A stretch of DNA of 64,000 nucleotides from an uncultured Bacteroidales bacterium (GTDB lineage Bacteria; Bacteroidota; Bacteroidia; Bacteroidales; CAYTAU01). The notes beneath the pieces were generated by a model. The model was not told where the DNA came from and ran no database searches. It saw nothing but the letters and a program-made list of their open reading frames with translations. This document shows positions 2,152-18,307 of the stretch, piece after piece. A program made the translations under genes and the position numbers. Position 1 is the first letter of the stretch; every line of letters begins with the position of its first letter. The stretch lies in the NCBI GenBank assembly GCA_964435855.1, contig CAYTAU010000008.1, forward strand, positions 2,096 through 66,095, written 5' to 3'.

Positions 2152-5100
2152 CTACTCCACTTTAACCCTAATCCCTTCAGAATGGCTTGCAAACTCAGGA
2201 GCATACATACATTGTATTGTAGTAATACCGTTCGAAAAATCGCCACGATGCTGAACACGCAATGGATACTCAAACACATAAGTTCCCTTTGGCATATACG
2301 ATATAAAAAAGTTTGTTGCAGCATCTTTGGTGCTTTCGTAATATCCAAGTCCATCCTGATATTTATATCGGCTAATTACATTTATTGGCTCAAAACCCGA
2401 AGCACGCATATCTTTCATATGCACATATTCCATCGAGCGGTCTACACGCAACTCAATACGCACAATTATTTTATCGCCAACTTTTAGTTTTGCTTTATCG
2501 CCAATTGGCTCAATAACTTTTCCTGCATCGGTATTGCGTTCAATAAATAGTTTTTTTGTTAGTTTTAAAGGTGTTTCGTGTGTGGTTATTTTATCGAGCT
2601 GTTCAAAATACTGCCAGTAAACAGCACCCCATGCCACACCTGCATCTTTTTTTGTAACAGTAACATTTCCCATTTGTGGAGTAATTTCTCCTTTGCCCCA
2701 CGAAGTTTTAAAATATCCAGTTCCTGCTTCTACTTTTACATCATCCATCTTTTTTGGGTCAATTACCATATCGCCCATTTTTATTTCAACAAGCTGGTCG
2801 CTATCTAACCAGTCTGCACCACGTAGCAAGAGTGCATAAACAGCCTCAACGGTAGCTTTTGTAGTTTTCCAGTCTTGCGTTTGCTTTTGTTTTAGCAACC
2901 ATACTTTAAGGTTTTCAACAGATTTCTGATCGTTTGCTACTTCATCAAAAACTTCAATTAATAAAGCTTGCCTTTCAATAGGCGCCTGATACCAGTAATA
3001 TCCTACAACATCTTTCCAGTACATTCCCATTTCTTCACTGTTTGTTGAGTTTTCGCGTAATGAATTAACAATATCCATAGCTGTTTTTTTCTCTTCGTAG
3101 CGATGCAATGCCAAAGATATCATGCCTTGCATATATTTGCTTTCGCTTAACCAATACTTTTTTGCTTGTCCTTTATAATAATCAAAGGCTTCTTGTGTTT
3201 TTTTAGGAATTGGCACATCGGTAAAATAACTTCTTGCATACAGATATTGTATTTGAAGATATCCTATATGTTTCTTTTTCATTTCTTCGGCAGTATAATG
3301 ACGCTTTAGATAATTGTAATCTTCCTTTATCCTTATATCAAGATAATTGATACCGTTTTTAACCATACTCCACACGCTTTTTTCTTCTTTTACGTTTTTC
3401 ACTCCCAAATTATCGAGATGCCCCATGCCTGTTACAATATGCTGAGTAATATAACGACTTTCGGGCATTCCTGTAAACCATGGCCATCCACCATTTGACG
3501 ATTGCATTTTTTCCAGTTTCCTGATAGCAACATTAAGCTCATTGCCCATTTTATTTAAATCGAACAATAAACCTACACGCTTTTTGCGTTCTGTTTCGCT
3601 TTGTGCATTAAGTACCCATGGGGTTTCCTCAAGCAACAAAGCTTTTAGCTCCTGATTTTTTTCAAGATTAGATAATAATGCTTTACTGTCGGGAGTATTT
3701 TTCCATGCATCAAATACTCGCTTAATTTTTGGCGATGAGTTTGCAATATGCGATGCCAGAGAGTTTGCATAATATCGCGAAAATATCTGCTCGGCACATT
3801 CGTAAGGATACTCCATAAGATATGGCAATGCCTGTACAGCATACCATGCGGGGTTTGAAGTAAATTCAAGTGTTACTTTATGATGTTTTAGAGTTTTTGA
3901 ACCACCTGAATTAATAAGCTTGGTAAACTCAAAAGTTTTTGTTTGCATTCCTCTCACTGGTAAAGGCATTGTTTCGGTTACCAACATTCTGTTTGTAAGA
4001 ACAGGTAATGCTCTTTCTTCGCCATCGCTGTGTTTTCCCGATTTTGCAACAACTTTAAAACTTATTGCCTGTACTCCATCAGGAATTTCAAGATTCCATA
4101 CCACAAGTGCATTTTGTTTTAACTTTACAGTAAATTTCTTTTCTGCATTTTCGCCTTTTGCAAAAATATTTTCAACGGGTTTCATTGTAATTGCATCAAA
4201 CAATTCAAGCCTTATCTGTCCGTCAATATCTTTTTCTGTAAGATTACTTACTTTAACAGGAAATTCAATTTTATCGCCTTCGCGGAAAAATCTTGGTGCA
4301 TTTGGCATTACCATTAATTCCTTTTGAGTAATAAGTTCGTTTTGGATAAAGCCCAGCTTAAGGTCTTTTGTGTGTGCCATTCCCATCATTTTCCATTTTG
4401 TTAAACTTTCGGGAATAGTAAATGATATTATTACTTCGCTATTTTCGTTTGTCATTAAATGTGGAAAGAAAAATGCAGTTTCGTTAAAATTGCTTCTTGC
4501 TTTAACATTGTCTAATTCTCCTTTATCTCCTCCATTGCTTTTGCCATAGCCTTGTCCTTCGCCACCTTGTCCTTGTTGTCTGGTTGTAGATGTAGCAATC
4601 GTAGCAATATCAGTAACTTCCCTTACAGTACTTTCATCGTCCATATCGTATTCTGCCTCTGTTTCGGCATAATCACCATCCATAGCTGCATCCGGTGACA
4701 TTACAGATTTCATTACAGCTCTGTCTCTACCACCATTTTTGCCTCTATTCCTACCTGATGAAGGATAAGAATAATAGCTTCTGCCATAGTAATTAAATCC
4801 AAACCAGTTTAAATATTCATAATTCTCGTATGGCATTGCAAAATATTCATCAAAGTTCTCTTTGTAAAGCGCTGATGAAGAAGTTCCAAATCTCCCGCCC
4901 GTTGCATACATTGAAGAATAGTAGCTGTCAAAAACATTAAAATTCCATGAATTTGCTCTAAACTCATCTAAAGATGCATCGTATAATGTGGCAAGCATTT
5001 CGGCTGCTACTTTTTCACCTTTAGGTCCTTTTATCTTAATTCTCCACTCTTCATTCTCGCCCGGCAATAGTTTGTTCCTGAATGTTTCAAATTCAATATC

Positions 5101-13468: not shown

Positions 13469-13476
13469 TACTTTTG
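13469..13476 (+). promoter_or_regulatory. Bacteroidota sigma-A type -7 box (TAnnTTTG) for the phosphonate operon
   Basis: TACTTTTG lies 17 nt before the ATG at 13493. No clear -33 TTTG at the canonical spacing. Confidence 0.35.
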
Positions 13477-13492
13477 CCTAAAAAAAAATATA

Positions 13493-14785
13493 ATGACAAA
13501 AAAAGTATATGTAGGGATGAGTGCAGATATGATTCATCCCGGACATTTAAATATTATTAAGGAAGCAAGTAAATTAGGCAATGTTATTGTTGGAATACTT
13601 ACCGATAAAGCTATTGCTTCATATAAGCGCTTGCCTGCATTAAAATATGAACAACGAAAAATAATTATAGAAAATATAAAAGGTGTAACTGAGGTTATTC
13701 CGCAACATGAATTAGATTATACAGTTAATTTACGTAAAGTAAAGCCGGATTATGTTGTTCATGGAGACGATTGGAAAGAAGGTATTCAGAGAAGAGTGCG
13801 TCAAAAAGTTATTGACACACTTGCAGAGTGGGGAGGCAAACTACATGAAGTGCCATATACAAAAGGAATTTCTTCAACACAATTAAATCAAACACTAAAA
13901 GAAATTGGTACAACTCCTGAAATAAGAATGGGTAAATTACGTCGTTTAATTGATTCAAAACCAATTGTTAGAGTGATGGAGGCTCATAATGGTTTAACAG
14001 GATTAATTGTTGAGAATATCAATGTTAAAAAAGATGGCATGACAAAAGAATTTGATGCCATGTGGCTTAGTAGCCTCACTGATTCTACTGCCAAAGGTAA
14101 ACCAGACATTGAAGCAGTTGATGTTACTTCGCGCCTACATAGTCTTAACGACATTTTAGAAGTAACCACAAAACCTATTATATATGATGGTGATACAGGT
14201 GGAATTCCGGAACATTTTATATTTACTGTGAGAACTTTGGAACGTCTGGGAGTTTCTGCAATAATTATTGAGGATAAAACTGGTTTAAAGAAAAATTCTC
14301 TTTTTGGAACAGATGTTAAACAAACCCAAGATTCAATAGAAAATTTTTCTAATAAGATTAAAACAGGTAAGCAATCACAAATTACAGATAGTTTTATGAT
14401 AATAGCCAGAATAGAGAGTTTGATACTAAAGCAAGGAATGGATGATGCTATTAATAGAGCAAAAGCGTATATAGAAGCGGGGACTGATGGTATTATGATT
14501 CACAGTAAAGAAAAAGATGGAAATGAAATTCTTGAATTTTGCAAAAAGTTTAATGAATTTGATAGACGTGTCCCCTTAGTTGTTGTTCCTTCTAGTTATA
14601 ATCACATATACGAAAAGCAATTCATTGATGCAGGTGCTAATGTCGTAATTTATGCAAATCATTTGTTGAGGAGTGCTTACCCTGCAATGATTGATGTTGC
14701 AAAAATAATTTTAGAAAATGAACGTTCTTCTGAAGTTAATGATAAATGTATGTCAATTAAAGAAATACTAACTCTTATCCCATAG
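13493..14785 (+). CDS. pepM: bifunctional cytidylyltransferase-like domain / phosphoenolpyruvate mutase
   Basis: The N-terminal ~130 aa is TagD/ECT-like with a HIGH-type motif ([18 protein letters not shown]). The C-terminal PepM domain has DGDTGG and [13 protein letters not shown]. Confidence 0.9.
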
Positions 14786-14792
14786 ATAAATA

Positions 14793-15923
14793 ATGATTAG
14801 TCCTAATTTTTTTTATAATTACTTAACGAGTAAAAATATAGAGTTTTTTACAGGTATACCTGACTCATTATTAAAAGATATTTGTGCTTATATTACAGAT
14901 AACACTTCAAAGAAAAATCATATTATTGCGGCAAACGAAGGAAATGCAATTGCTATTGCAGCCGGATATCATATGGCAACAGATAAAATCCCTTTGGTTT
15001 ATATGCAAAATTCAGGAATAGGCAATGCTGTAAATCCGCTGCTGTCACTTACTGACTCGAACGCGTATAATATTCCGATTTTACTGATGATTGGTTGGCG
15101 AGGTGAACCTGGAACAAAAGATGAACCGCAACATGTTAAACAAGGCTTGGTTACAACTTCTTTGCTTGATGCGATGAAAATACCATATTTAATTTTAGAC
15201 CAAGACGAACAAAATGCCAAAGAACAAATAGATGAAGCAATAAATAAAATAAATAAAACAAATGTTGTTTTTGCTATTATTGTTAGAAAAGGAACTTTTG
15301 AAAAATATAGTATCAAGCAAAAAACAGATGCAAATTATACACTTTATCGCGAAGAGGCAATTAAAATAATTGTTGAGCAATTAGAAGGAAAAGAGTTAAT
15401 TGTTTCAACTACAGGAAAAACTTCTCGTGAGCTTTTTGAATGCAGAGAGGCATTAAATCAGCTACATAATGCTGATTTTTTGACCGTAGGTTCTATGGGA
15501 CATGCTAGTCAAATAGCATTAGGTATAGCATTAAGCAAACCTAATAGAAAAGTAATATGTATTGATGGTGATGGAGCTGTTTTAATGCACATGGGAGGGT
15601 TTGCAATTATAGGAACACAATCTCCAAAGAATTTTTTACATATAATTATAAATAATGGAGCACATGAATCTGTTGGTGGACAACCAACTGTAGCTTTTGG
15701 TATTGATATTCCATCTATTGCTAAAGCCAATAATTACAAATACGCCGTTAGAGTTTCAACATCAGATGAGCTTAAAGATGCTCTTGTAGAAATTGATAAA
15801 AACTTATTCCCGGCACTTATTGAAATAATGGTACGAACAGGTTCAAGAGATGATTTAGGTCGCCCTACTATTAAGCCGATAGATAACAAAATTAATTTTA
15901 TGAAAAATCTAGCATCAGAATGA
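14793..15923 (+). CDS. ppd: phosphonopyruvate decarboxylase
   Basis: 376 aa. ThDP motif GDGAVLMHMGG...NNGAHESVGGQ. Sits immediately after pepM. Confidence 0.88.
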   Translation: MISPNFFYNYLTSKNIEFFTGIPDSLLKDICAYITDNTSKKNHIIAANEGNAIAIAAGYHMATDKIPLVYMQNSGIGNAVNPLLSLTDSNAYNIPILLMIGWRGEPGTKDEPQHVKQGLVTTSLLDAMKIPYLILDQDEQNAKEQIDEAINKINKTNVVFAIIVRKGTFEKYSIKQKTDANYTLYREEAIKIIVEQLEGKELIVSTTGKTSRELFECREALNQLHNADFLTVGSMGHASQIALGIALSKPNRKVICIDGDGAVLMHMGGFAIIGTQSPKNFLHIIINNGAHESVGGQPTVAFGIDIPSIAKANNYKYAVRVSTSDELKDALVEIDKNLFPALIEIMVRTGSRDDLGRPTIKPIDNKINFMKNLASE

Positions 15924-17047
15924 GGCAAGAAGTATATAGAAATACGCAATTTTTAGATTTTAAGAAGTTTGTTAATAGGTATAATCCACAAAAAGTATTT
16001 TTGGTTGTGGATAAAAATTCATACGAGGTTTCCGGAGCAAGATTATTTATTGAAAAAATCTTTGGCGATGCTTTATCTGTCGCATTTTCTGATTTTAATC
16101 CCAATCCTCAATTGTCAGACTTAAAAAAAGGTATCTTTTTATTTCAAAAAGGTAAATATGAATTAATCTTGGCATTAGGAGGAGGGAGTGTTATTGATAT
16201 GGCTAAGCTGATTAGTGTAATGGTACATCAAGATCAGGATGTTAAAAAAATTGCAAAAAGAAGTGCTATTTTGAATAATAAAAAGACCCCATTGTTAACT
16301 ATTCCAACAACAGCCGGTACAGGTGCAGAAGCAACATCATTTGCAGTTCTTTATATTGATAAAGTCAAATATTCTGTTGCAAATGAATCAATATCTCCCA
16401 ATTATATTTTTTTGTCTCCCGAATTTTTAATGTCTGCACCTCCATATTTAACAGCTTGTACAGGTCTTGATGCATTTTGTCAAGCAATAGAATCTGTTTG
16501 GAGTATTAATTCCACAACAGAATCTAAAAAATATGCTCTTGAAGCAATTGATATAGTATGGAATAATCTGAAAATGGCAGTTGTTGATAATGACAAAAAA
16601 GCAAAGTCATTAATGCAAGAAGCTGCGTATTTAGCAGGTAAAGCAATAAATATCACAAAAACAACAGCGCCACATGCTTTGTCTTATGCTTTTACAAGTT
16701 ATTATAATATACCCCACGGGCATGCGGTAGCTTTGAGTTTGCCTTTTTTCTTTGAGTATAATTATGGGGTTTTAGATATTGACTGTAATGATACTCAAGG
16801 TGGAGATATTGTTAGAAATCGAATAAATGAGATCTTAAAAATAATGAATCTTAATATTGATAATGTGAACAATGAACTTACTTTATTCTTTGATTCAATA
16901 GGGATTAATATTAATATTATGACATTAATTAAGGATTTTAATCCAGATATAATTGTTAACAATATAAATCTTGAACGATTAAATAATAACCCAAGAAAAA
17001 TTAATAAAAAATCATTGATGAGTTTTTTAAATAACTGTAAATATTAG
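15920..17047 (+). CDS. iron-containing (group III) alcohol dehydrogenase, probable phosphonoacetaldehyde reductase
   Basis: GGGSVIDMAK and PHALSYAF..IPHGHAVAL metal-site histidines. ATGA overlap with ppd. The specific substrate is inferred from context. Confidence 0.7.
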   Translation: MRQEVYRNTQFLDFKKFVNRYNPQKVFLVVDKNSYEVSGARLFIEKIFGDALSVAFSDFNPNPQLSDLKKGIFLFQKGKYELILALGGGSVIDMAKLISVMVHQDQDVKKIAKRSAILNNKKTPLLTIPTTAGTGAEATSFAVLYIDKVKYSVANESISPNYIFLSPEFLMSAPPYLTACTGLDAFCQAIESVWSINSTTESKKYALEAIDIVWNNLKMAVVDNDKKAKSLMQEAAYLAGKAINITKTTAPHALSYAFTSYYNIPHGHAVALSLPFFFEYNYGVLDIDCNDTQGGDIVRNRINEILKIMNLNIDNVNNELTLFFDSIGININIMTLIKDFNPDIIVNNINLERLNNNPRKINKKSLMSFLNNCKY

Positions 17048-17068: not shown

Positions 17069-18307
17069 ATGACAAAAATACTTTTATATATAGACCCAGC
17101 GTCAACAAGTGCATTGCTTTATATTATAATTGCCATTGCAGCAACACTTGCCTTTGCCTTACGTGGTTTTTTCTATAGGATTAAAAATTTAATTTTTGGA
17201 AAAGGATTTATAAATACTAATGAATTTAATAATATTGATATTATTTTTTATTCTGAAGGGAAACAATATTGGCCTGTGTTTTATCCAATTATTAAAGCTT
17301 TGGAAAAGAAAAATATTGAATGTGCATATTTAACATCAGATGATAAAGATCCCGGCTTAGACTATAAATCAGAACTTCTTAAAACAAAATTTATAGGTAA
17401 TTTAACTATGACATCAGTTTATTTAAAAAAATTAAAAGCTAAATTTGTTGGAATGACTACACCACAACTTGATGTAATGATGATACAGCGATCAAAACAT
17501 ATACAACATTATGCTCATATAGTACATGCTCCTATTGATGTTTTTACATATCGTAAATTTGCTTTTGATTATTTTGATTCTGTTTTTTGTTCAGGACCAC
17601 ATCAAATAGAAGGAATTAAAAAACTAGAAGAGAAACGTGGAACAAATAAAAAACTTCTTTTAGAAACTGGACTTACATATTATGATGTAATGTTAGAGGA
17701 TATTAAAAAATTACCAAACCCAGATAAGCAAAGACCTGTTGTATTAGTTGCTCCAACATGGAAAGAGTACTCAATATTAAACAGATTTGGATTAAAGTTT
17801 TTTGAAAATCTTCTAAAAGATGAATCTTATGATGTTATTTTAAGACCTCACCCACAAACTTATGTGAGTTTCCCAAAATTAATTGCAGAAATTGAAGAAA
17901 AATATAAAGATGAACCACGATTTGTTGTTGACAGAGAACCATTAGGAACAGCAAGTATGTTGAAAGCTGACTTGATGATCAGCGATTTGTCAGGAGTGTT
18001 TTGGGATTTTATGTTTTTATATTCCAAACCTATCTTATTATTAAAAACGAACTTTGAATCTATAGAAGGTTTTGAAGGAAGTGAGTTAGACTATGAAATG
18101 TGGGAAATGAGAGAAAGAAGTAGGGTTGGGAGTATTTTTGATGAAGATGATTTAGAAAATATAAATAAAGTTGTGAAAGACTTATTAGAAACCCCTCCTC
18201 TTATGCAGTTAGAAGAGCTGAGAAAGCAGTCAGTATTTAATTTTGGGAGGGCTGGAGAAACAGCTGCTAAACAGATATTAGAGATAATAGAAGATATTGA
18301 CAAATAA
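17069..18307 (+). CDS. TagF/TagB-family CDP-alditol-type phosphotransferase homolog with N-terminal TM helix
   Basis: VVLVAPTWKE, ILRPHPQT, DLMISDLSGVFWDF, SKPILLL: the hallmark string of the CDP-glycerol glycerophosphotransferase family. Confidence 0.75.
   Translation: MTKILLYIDPASTSALLYIIIAIAATLAFALRGFFYRIKNLIFGKGFINTNEFNNIDIIFYSEGKQYWPVFYPIIKALEKKNIECAYLTSDDKDPGLDYKSELLKTKFIGNLTMTSVYLKKLKAKFVGMTTPQLDVMMIQRSKHIQHYAHIVHAPIDVFTYRKFAFDYFDSVFCSGPHQIEGIKKLEEKRGTNKKLLLETGLTYYDVMLEDIKKLPNPDKQRPVVLVAPTWKEYSILNRFGLKFFENLLKDESYDVILRPHPQTYVSFPKLIAEIEEKYKDEPRFVVDREPLGTASMLKADLMISDLSGVFWDFMFLYSKPILLLKTNFESIEGFEGSELDYEMWEMRERSRVGSIFDEDDLENINKVVKDLLETPPLMQLEELRKQSVFNFGRAGETAAKQILEIIEDIDK

Follow-up and report, generated by a model that had tools for sequence, protein, structure and literature searches.

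In a stretch of 64,000 nucleotides from an uncultured Bacteroidales bacterium (contig CAYTAU010000008.1; hereafter the window), the gene at positions 13493..14785 of the + strand joins a cytidylyltransferase (CyTase) domain to a phosphoenolpyruvate (PEP) mutase domain. Judged from its sequence and its structural model, the encoded protein is very probably a working Fom1-type enzyme, acting both as PEP mutase and as cytidylyltransferase of 2-hydroxyethylphosphonate (HEP). Its domain identities are clear, its catalytic motifs are intact, its N-terminal domain is closely akin to the CyTase domain of Fom1, and the order of the genes that follow it is conserved. What we infer are the substrates and, in particular, that the TagF-like enzyme encoded downstream uses CMP-HEP.

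In the proposed pathway, the mutase domain would convert PEP to phosphonopyruvate (step 1), the phosphonopyruvate decarboxylase Ppd would form phosphonoacetaldehyde, an iron-containing alcohol dehydrogenase (Fe-ADH) would reduce this to HEP, and the N-terminal domain would turn HEP and CTP into CMP-HEP and pyrophosphate (step 4). One polypeptide would supply the first and the fourth step from PEP to CMP-HEP, as in the Fom1, Fom2 and FomC system of Streptomyces fosfomycin synthesis. CMP-HEP would most likely be the final activated donor, no fosfomycin tailoring genes following, and the TagF-fold transferase would most likely move the phosphonyl group from it onto a hydroxyl of a glycan or polymer in the envelope.

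The fused gene and its two domains

The fused gene is real and intact, and its domain matches are far beyond chance. The open reading frame runs uninterrupted for 430 amino acids plus the stop codon, with both domains in one frame: PF01467 at residues 10-131 (Pfam; E 2e-14, 54.4 bits against a cutoff of 21) and PF13714 (PEP_mutase) at residues 149-406 (E 8.9e-54). The PEP_mutase equivalog TIGR02320 of NCBIfam scores 418 bits against a cutoff of 319.55. At E <= 0.01, Pfam gave no match to PF12804, the MobA-like NTP transferase family of LicC and PntC type. More than 100 fused homologues have equal length and align with the protein across residues 1-430; thus, neither the start codon nor the fusion is an assembly artefact. 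A first-pass annotation made from the letters alone had described a PF01467-type HIGH-motif domain joined to a canonical PEP mutase. Both calls were correct, and the motif strings that it quoted are present at residues 9-22 (with HPGH at 15-18) and 260-272 (from nucleotide 14270).

The N-terminal domain (residues 1-138, 13493..13906) was delimited by Pfam, by its match to the PDB entry 5X3D and by superposition. When all PDB sequences were searched, residues 5-138 had a single outstanding match, 5X3D_A (E 1.5e-59, about 68% identity), whose title reads 'HEP-CMP-bound form of cytidylyltransferase (CyTase) domain of Fom1 from Streptomyces wedmorensis'. The same domain matched human ethanolamine-phosphate cytidylyltransferase (ECT) at 7e-17 and Bacillus subtilis TagD at 1.5e-10. 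The AlphaFold2 (AF2) model of the full fused protein, built from a 33-sequence alignment, has a mean predicted local distance difference test score (pLDDT) of 89.8 and a predicted template modelling (TM) score of 0.87, and Foldseek places its N-terminal domain on 5X3D with a TM score of 0.97 and a root-mean-square deviation of 0.9 Å over 126 residues. The HxGH nucleotide-binding signature, HPGH at residues 15-18 (13535..13546), aligns with HPGH of Fom1, HWGH of TagD and HYGH of ECT. The segment YTKGISST at residues 122-129 (13856..13879), the counterpart of the RTxGISTT of TagD- and ECT-type enzymes, aligns with YTPGISST of Fom1 and RTQGVSTT of ECT; its Tyr in place of Arg is shared with Fom1. 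Between the ends of the two Pfam and PDB matches lies a junction of ten residues (139-148, 13907..13936), at which the model has a short break (residues 139-141) between the helices 128-138 and 142-155.

The C-terminal domain (residues 149-430, 13937..14782) is a PEP mutase by TIGR02320, by its match to the Mytilus PEP mutase 1M1B (E 2e-40 in the PDB sequence search) and by its best Foldseek matches, the PEP mutases 5UNC and 1PYM. The only weak stretch of the AF2 model, residues 268-273 just past the EDK motif, lies where we take the mobile gating loop of PEP mutases to be. The motif EDKxxxxxNS, which separates true PEP mutases from their isocitrate-lyase relatives (Rice et al. 2019, PMC6697681), is present at residues 260-269 (14270..14299).

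Conservation was read from an alignment of 33 true fused homologues with identity down to 41%. It replaced an alignment of 50%-identity cluster representatives, most of which were divergent and had a degenerate mutase half, so that the mutase motif seemed poorly conserved. In the CyTase half, D12, H15, G17, D38, Y44, R55, H90, G91, D93, W94, R103, Y122, T123 and S127 are invariant, and H18, K45 and R46 are conserved in at least 90% of the homologues. In the mutase half, D188, D205, D232, D234, E260, D261, K262, N268, S269, R306, E308 and H337 are invariant. By sequence, both halves look catalytically intact.

An N-terminal domain that is degenerate, or purely regulatory or structural, with the mutase alone active, is extremely unlikely. 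Nothing in the window protein speaks for it; elsewhere the mutase half has degenerated, so one half of such a fusion can lose catalysis. However, the HxGH signature, K45/R46, R55, D93/W94 and Y122/T123/S127 are retained, with little or no variation among the homologues, and the model gives the domain with confidence and in almost the same shape as the ligand-bound Fom1 domain. Furthermore, over 80 related loci the mean identity to the window protein is 73.5% for the CyTase and 70.6% for the mutase, and the CyTase is the more conserved half in 64 of them, which speaks against a CyTase domain in decay or with a regulatory role only.

Such a fusion is a catalogued, common and characterised type, whose architecture, chemistry and abundance have been published. 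Among 1485 RefSeq proteins with EDKxxxxxNS, 59.5% were fused to another domain: LicC-like PF12804 in 33.0%, PF01467 in 23.6% and both in 2.9% (Rice et al. 2019, PMC6697681). Fom1, whose N-terminal domain moves CMP from CTP onto HEP, is the PF01467 precedent, and PhpF, a phosphonoformate cytidylyltransferase, is a second PF01467 enzyme that acts on a phosphonate (PMC6697681). Fom1, Fom2 and FomC catalyse the conversion of PEP to 2-HEP-CMP (PMC8158854); the primary study of Fom1 is Cho et al. 2017, as cited in PMC6697681 and PMC8158854. Fusions of PF01467 with PEP mutase (Ppm) are also mentioned by Li and Horsman (2022, PMC8942020), some of them in clusters of 2-aminoethylphosphonate (AEP) type. 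The 'fom1' of a Pectobacterium paper is a marker gene for a plain PEP mutase, which is uninformative here. The premise of the first-pass annotation that CMP activation of phosphonates was established for LicC-type enzymes only was thus wrong, Fom1 and PhpF having preceded it. The search for PF01467 plus PEP mutase architectures that it proposed gives thousands of examples, of a fusion already inventoried as the 23.6% above. In a large protein database, at least 8000 proteins match the fused protein at E <= 0.001; the best 120 of them all carry PF13714 and PF01467 and have 421-439 amino acids, and several close homologues bear the JGI name 'phosphoenolpyruvate phosphomutase / 2-hydroxyethylphosphonate cytidylyltransferase'. 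The fusion itself brings nothing new, and annotation pipelines already name such proteins.

Gene order and the substrate of the fused domain

The fused gene belongs to an operon of nine genes, and the genes after it are likewise on the + strand. It is followed by a gene for Ppd, the counterpart of Fom2 (14793..15923; TIGR03297, 504.8 bits against a cutoff of 312.5), and by one for a group III Fe-ADH (15920..17047; PF00465 and PF25137), probably a phosphonoacetaldehyde reductase and the counterpart of FomC and PhpC; the start of the latter overlaps the Ppd stop. Next comes the gene of the TagF-like protein (17069..18307), and past it lie those of two proteins of more than 1000 amino acids whose N-terminus resembles YidC (the first has a sulfatase-fold domain as well), of a 636-amino-acid protein lacking a Pfam match, of an MBOAT protein and of an AlgX-like protein. 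A type IX secretion system sorting domain and SprB repeats are encoded nearby in the window; together with the names given to the nearest homologues, they assign the host to Bacteroidales. The 467-bp intergenic region upstream of the fused gene contains no RNA element at E <= 1 in Rfam. At 13469..13476 (+), 17 nt before the ATG, the sequence TACTTTTG matches TAnnTTTG, which we take to be the Bacteroidota -7 promoter consensus; this is weak evidence. A second TAnnTTTG match is found at about 13308, and chance matches are possible in this very AT-rich region.

The genome from which the window comes (4.7 Mb, 96% complete) contains one true PEP mutase. It contains no PhnW-type AEP transaminase (the best match has 34 bits against a cutoff of 400.8) and no FomD-type DUF402 protein. 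Fom3, FomD and Fom4 are absent from the Pfam matches of the operon; Fom3 and Fom4 were not searched genome-wide. Since the genome lacks an AEP transaminase and FomD, the pathway should end at HEP, rather than at AEP or fosfomycin.

Related loci were collected by scanning one genome per prokaryotic species, which gave 80 loci whose fused gene is 66-97% identical to that of the window. Gene order was counted in the 70 of these with at least 2.4 kb downstream. A Ppd gene directly follows the fused gene in 70/70, and an Fe-ADH gene comes next in 66/70. Two of the four exceptions (L048 and L079), together with L075, have a class-V aminotransferase gene instead of that for Fe-ADH. These three loci and the truncated L040 contain an extra LicC/PntC-like gene, and their CyTase domains are the most divergent (62%). 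Furthermore, a direct fusion of CyTase with Fe-ADH is found in metagenomes (P0167, 512 amino acids). The kept order of Ppd and Fe-ADH, the divergence of the AEP-type loci and this direct fusion tie the CyTase subfamily of the window to HEP.

This pattern bears on the question of whether the fused domain activates another substrate, such as AEP, another phosphonoacetaldehyde derivative, glycerol-3-phosphate or phosphoethanolamine. PF01467 enzymes take many substrates (TagD, ECT, CCT, PhpF), and PF01467-Ppm fusions also stand beside an AEP transaminase (Li and Horsman 2022; L048, L075 and L079). However, the fused domain matches the HEP-specific Fom1 domain at least 40 orders of magnitude more strongly than it matches ECT or TagD, and the TagD model TIGR01518 (NCBIfam) gives the fused protein 51.8 bits, below its cutoff of 165.4. 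The absence of an AEP transaminase from the genome, the Fe-ADH in 66/70 loci, and the extra LicC/PntC-like gene and most divergent CyTase domains (62%) of the AEP-type loci also speak against another substrate, which we regard as unlikely.

In L048 (Clostridium algidicarnis), L075, L079 and L040, the extra gene encodes a helix-turn-helix domain plus the LicC/PntC-like domain and lies just upstream of the PF01467-Ppm fusion; these clusters therefore have two different cytidylyltransferase folds. The CyTase subfamily also has other partners. Besides the CyTase-Fe-ADH fusion, metagenomes contain radical-SAM-CyTase (483 amino acids), HD-CyTase-PEP mutase (625 amino acids) and a tandem double CyTase (363 amino acids); the ids P0167, P0210, P0237 and P0121 follow the order in which these four are listed. 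In another set of proteins (metagenomic P0123, P0131, P0134, P0140, P0146 and P0148-P0150, and loci L087-L089), a Fom1-like CyTase is well preserved, with 60-73% identity to that of the window. In their PF13714 half, EDKxxxxxNS is absent, DGDTG is changed, for example to DVGNE, and the Arg and His are lost. The P0123 loci have the order APS-kinase-like, CyTase-pseudomutase, Fe-ADH, sulfotransferase-like and GT4, with no Ppd on contigs of 5-6 kb. The mutase-like half of these proteins may be a scaffold or may perform a different chemistry.

Within Bacteroidota, the carriers of the 80 loci belong to Bacteroidales, Salinivirgaceae, Marinifilaceae, Flavobacteriia (Polaribacter, Arenibacter), Sphingobacteriia (Olivibacter) and rumen Prevotella-like metagenome-assembled genomes (MAGs). 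The fused gene was found in 7 of 300 sampled Bacteroidota genomes besides that of the window; this patchiness fits a variable surface-glycan trait. One Salinivirgaceae MAG has two loci (L006 and L025, about 82% and 71% identical to the window's), as does another (L024 and L026, about 69% and 70%); in L024, Ppd is followed by a TagF-like gene without Fe-ADH. Beyond Bacteroidota, the fused gene occurs in Clostridium, Holophaga, spirochaetes, Aminicenantes and DPANN archaea. In the DPANN genomes, a Woesearchaeota MAG (L076) and a Nanoarchaeota MAG (L079), it is 66-69% identical to the Bacteroidales protein of the window, which suggests that the module has spread widely by horizontal transfer or that these MAGs were mis-binned.

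The TagF-like neighbour and the fate of CMP-HEP

The protein encoded at 17069..18307 (+) is a TagF-like GT-B phosphotransferase and the candidate user of CMP-HEP. PF04464 matches it with 41.8 bits against a cutoff of 22.1, over model positions 151-311 only. By sequence it has no match in the PDB at E <= 1. With its AF2 model (pLDDT 81.6), Foldseek ranks TagF (3L7I-M; E 3.6e-13, TM score 0.52) and TarL (8VA1) above generic GT-B enzymes. Its N-terminus is predicted to form a long helix of 33 residues (10-42), which lies outside the part represented by TagF-type soluble domains in the PDB and probably anchors the protein in the membrane. Among 25 homologues, H261, a candidate for a catalytic histidine of TagF type, never varies; it stands in an RPHP-like segment.

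PF04464 occurs in 18 of 100 sampled Bacteroidota genomes, mostly as a single copy, and in the genome of the window this protein is the only one. Among the 80 loci, 32 have a TagF-like gene no more than 8 kb from the fusion, as detected with a hidden Markov model (HMM) built from such neighbours; in Marinifilum, Arenibacter and Olivibacter, where this neighbour is divergent, Pfam confirmed PF04464. The loci are related and these counts are not independent; the adjacency is nevertheless far above that of random placement. In a Rikenellaceae MAG (L010:3792-5094), the TagF-like gene is split into overlapping frames, 3792-4352 and 4228-5094, probably through a frameshift or an error of assembly.

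The first-pass annotation had the N-terminal domain supplying a downstream transferase with a CMP-phosphonate. This idea is well supported by the approximately 68% identity to the Fom1 CyTase and by the succession of Ppd, Fe-ADH and TagF-fold proteins after it. As for the further suggestion that a TagF-type enzyme would use the CMP-phosphonate, the recurrent adjacency supports it, but such use is not proven, and the searchable literature describes no transfer of this kind. If the window protein is a working Fom1-type enzyme, the chance that the TagF-like neighbour is a CMP-HEP-dependent phosphonyl transferase seems to us somewhat better than even.

One alternative is that CMP-HEP is a transient, protected intermediate toward a diffusible small-molecule phosphonate, and not a surface donor. 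CMP-HEP plays this part in the sole characterised case (Fom1/Fom3/FomD; PMC8158854), and a radical-SAM-CyTase fusion is present in metagenomes (P0210). However, the nine-gene operon contains no radical-SAM/B12 methyltransferase, epoxidase or DUF402 hydrolase, no DUF402 protein was found in the genome, and the downstream genes are of envelope type (the TagF-fold transferase, the YidC/sulfatase-fold membrane proteins, MBOAT and the AlgX-like protein). We consider this alternative very improbable. Together with the AEP substrate and the degenerate N-terminal domain, such a fosfomycin-like small-molecule pathway was considered and rejected on the points against each.

Another possibility, speculative and unlikely, is that the TagF-fold enzyme polymerises HEP from CMP-HEP into poly(2-hydroxyethylphosphonate), a C-P analogue of teichoic acid, instead of adding a single cap. 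Polymerisation is conceivable because HEP keeps a free hydroxyl, like glycerol phosphate. If the product were such a polymer, the YidC/LtaS-like, MBOAT and AlgX-like proteins of the operon would process the chain in a Gram-negative Bacteroidales bacterium.

Several points weigh against the route from the fused enzyme through CMP-HEP to the TagF-like transferase. The PF01467 fold alone does not fix the substrate, for AEP-type clusters too can include a PF01467-Ppm fusion (Li and Horsman 2022; L048, L075 and L079). The best NCBIfam match of the Fe-ADH is the phosphonate-linked PsrA (TIGR03405), at 165 bits under a cutoff of 423.7; the assignment of HEP formation thus rests on the family, position and conservation of the Fe-ADH. 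By the HMM, a TagF-like gene is present in 23 of the 52 loci of at least 15 kb, and about half are without one. Finally, the searchable literature yielded no characterised CMP-HEP-using transferase and no paper joining 'glycerophosphotransferase' with phosphonate terms; mentions of CMP-HEP or HEP-CMP in it are confined to fosfomycin, to radical-SAM chemistry and to Rice 2019.

The fused gene may serve as an anchor, by which the head group of the product is likely to be CMP-activated 2-hydroxyethylphosphonate and not AEP. The interest then shifts to the next step, for which the recurrently adjacent TagF-like genes are good candidates as those of enzymes of phosphonyl transfer from CMP-HEP. Cultivated carriers of the module include Arenibacter hampyeongensis JCM 17788, Olivibacter ginsenosidimutans JCM 18200 and Polaribacter sp. 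MF5-112.

Comparison with known systems

The closest known system is that of Fom1. The window protein shares with Fom1 of Streptomyces wedmorensis the domain order, the HPGH and YTxGISST motifs and a true PEP mutase half, and the Fom2-like Ppd and FomC-like Fe-ADH partners are matched in the window. The host of Fom1 is an actinomycete, whereas that of the window is an uncultured Bacteroidales bacterium. The fosfomycin system has Fom3, Fom4 and FomD; the window operon is without them and continues into envelope-polymer genes, and thus CMP-HEP is probably the end donor, unlike in fosfomycin synthesis. TagD and ECT/CCT (PF01467) have the same fold and the HxGH signature, and their segments corresponding to R55 and GDDW align with those of the window domain. 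Their relationship is only distant (E 1.5e-10 and 7e-17, with TIGR01518 well under its cutoff), TagD and ECT have Arg in RTxGISTT where the window domain has Tyr, and the window enzyme is fused to a PEP mutase and has a phosphonate as its predicted substrate.

The PntC-Ppm fusions (LicC-like, PF12804; Rice et al. 2019) follow the same logic, a CMP-phosphonate being made for the tailoring of the cell surface. Their cytidylyltransferase has the MobA/LicC-like fold and prefers AEP, whereas the fusion of the window has a HIGH-motif Rossmann domain with HEP as the predicted substrate. As for the product, an exopolysaccharide bearing HEP is reported from Stackebrandtia nassauensis and Glycomyces (Yu et al. 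2014, as cited by PMC8942020), and HEP esterified to a glycan is described in PMC8942020 as the sole isolated product type of PhpC-type (HEP) surface pathways. The organism is again an actinomycete; such an exopolysaccharide is the kind of product predicted for the operon of the window.

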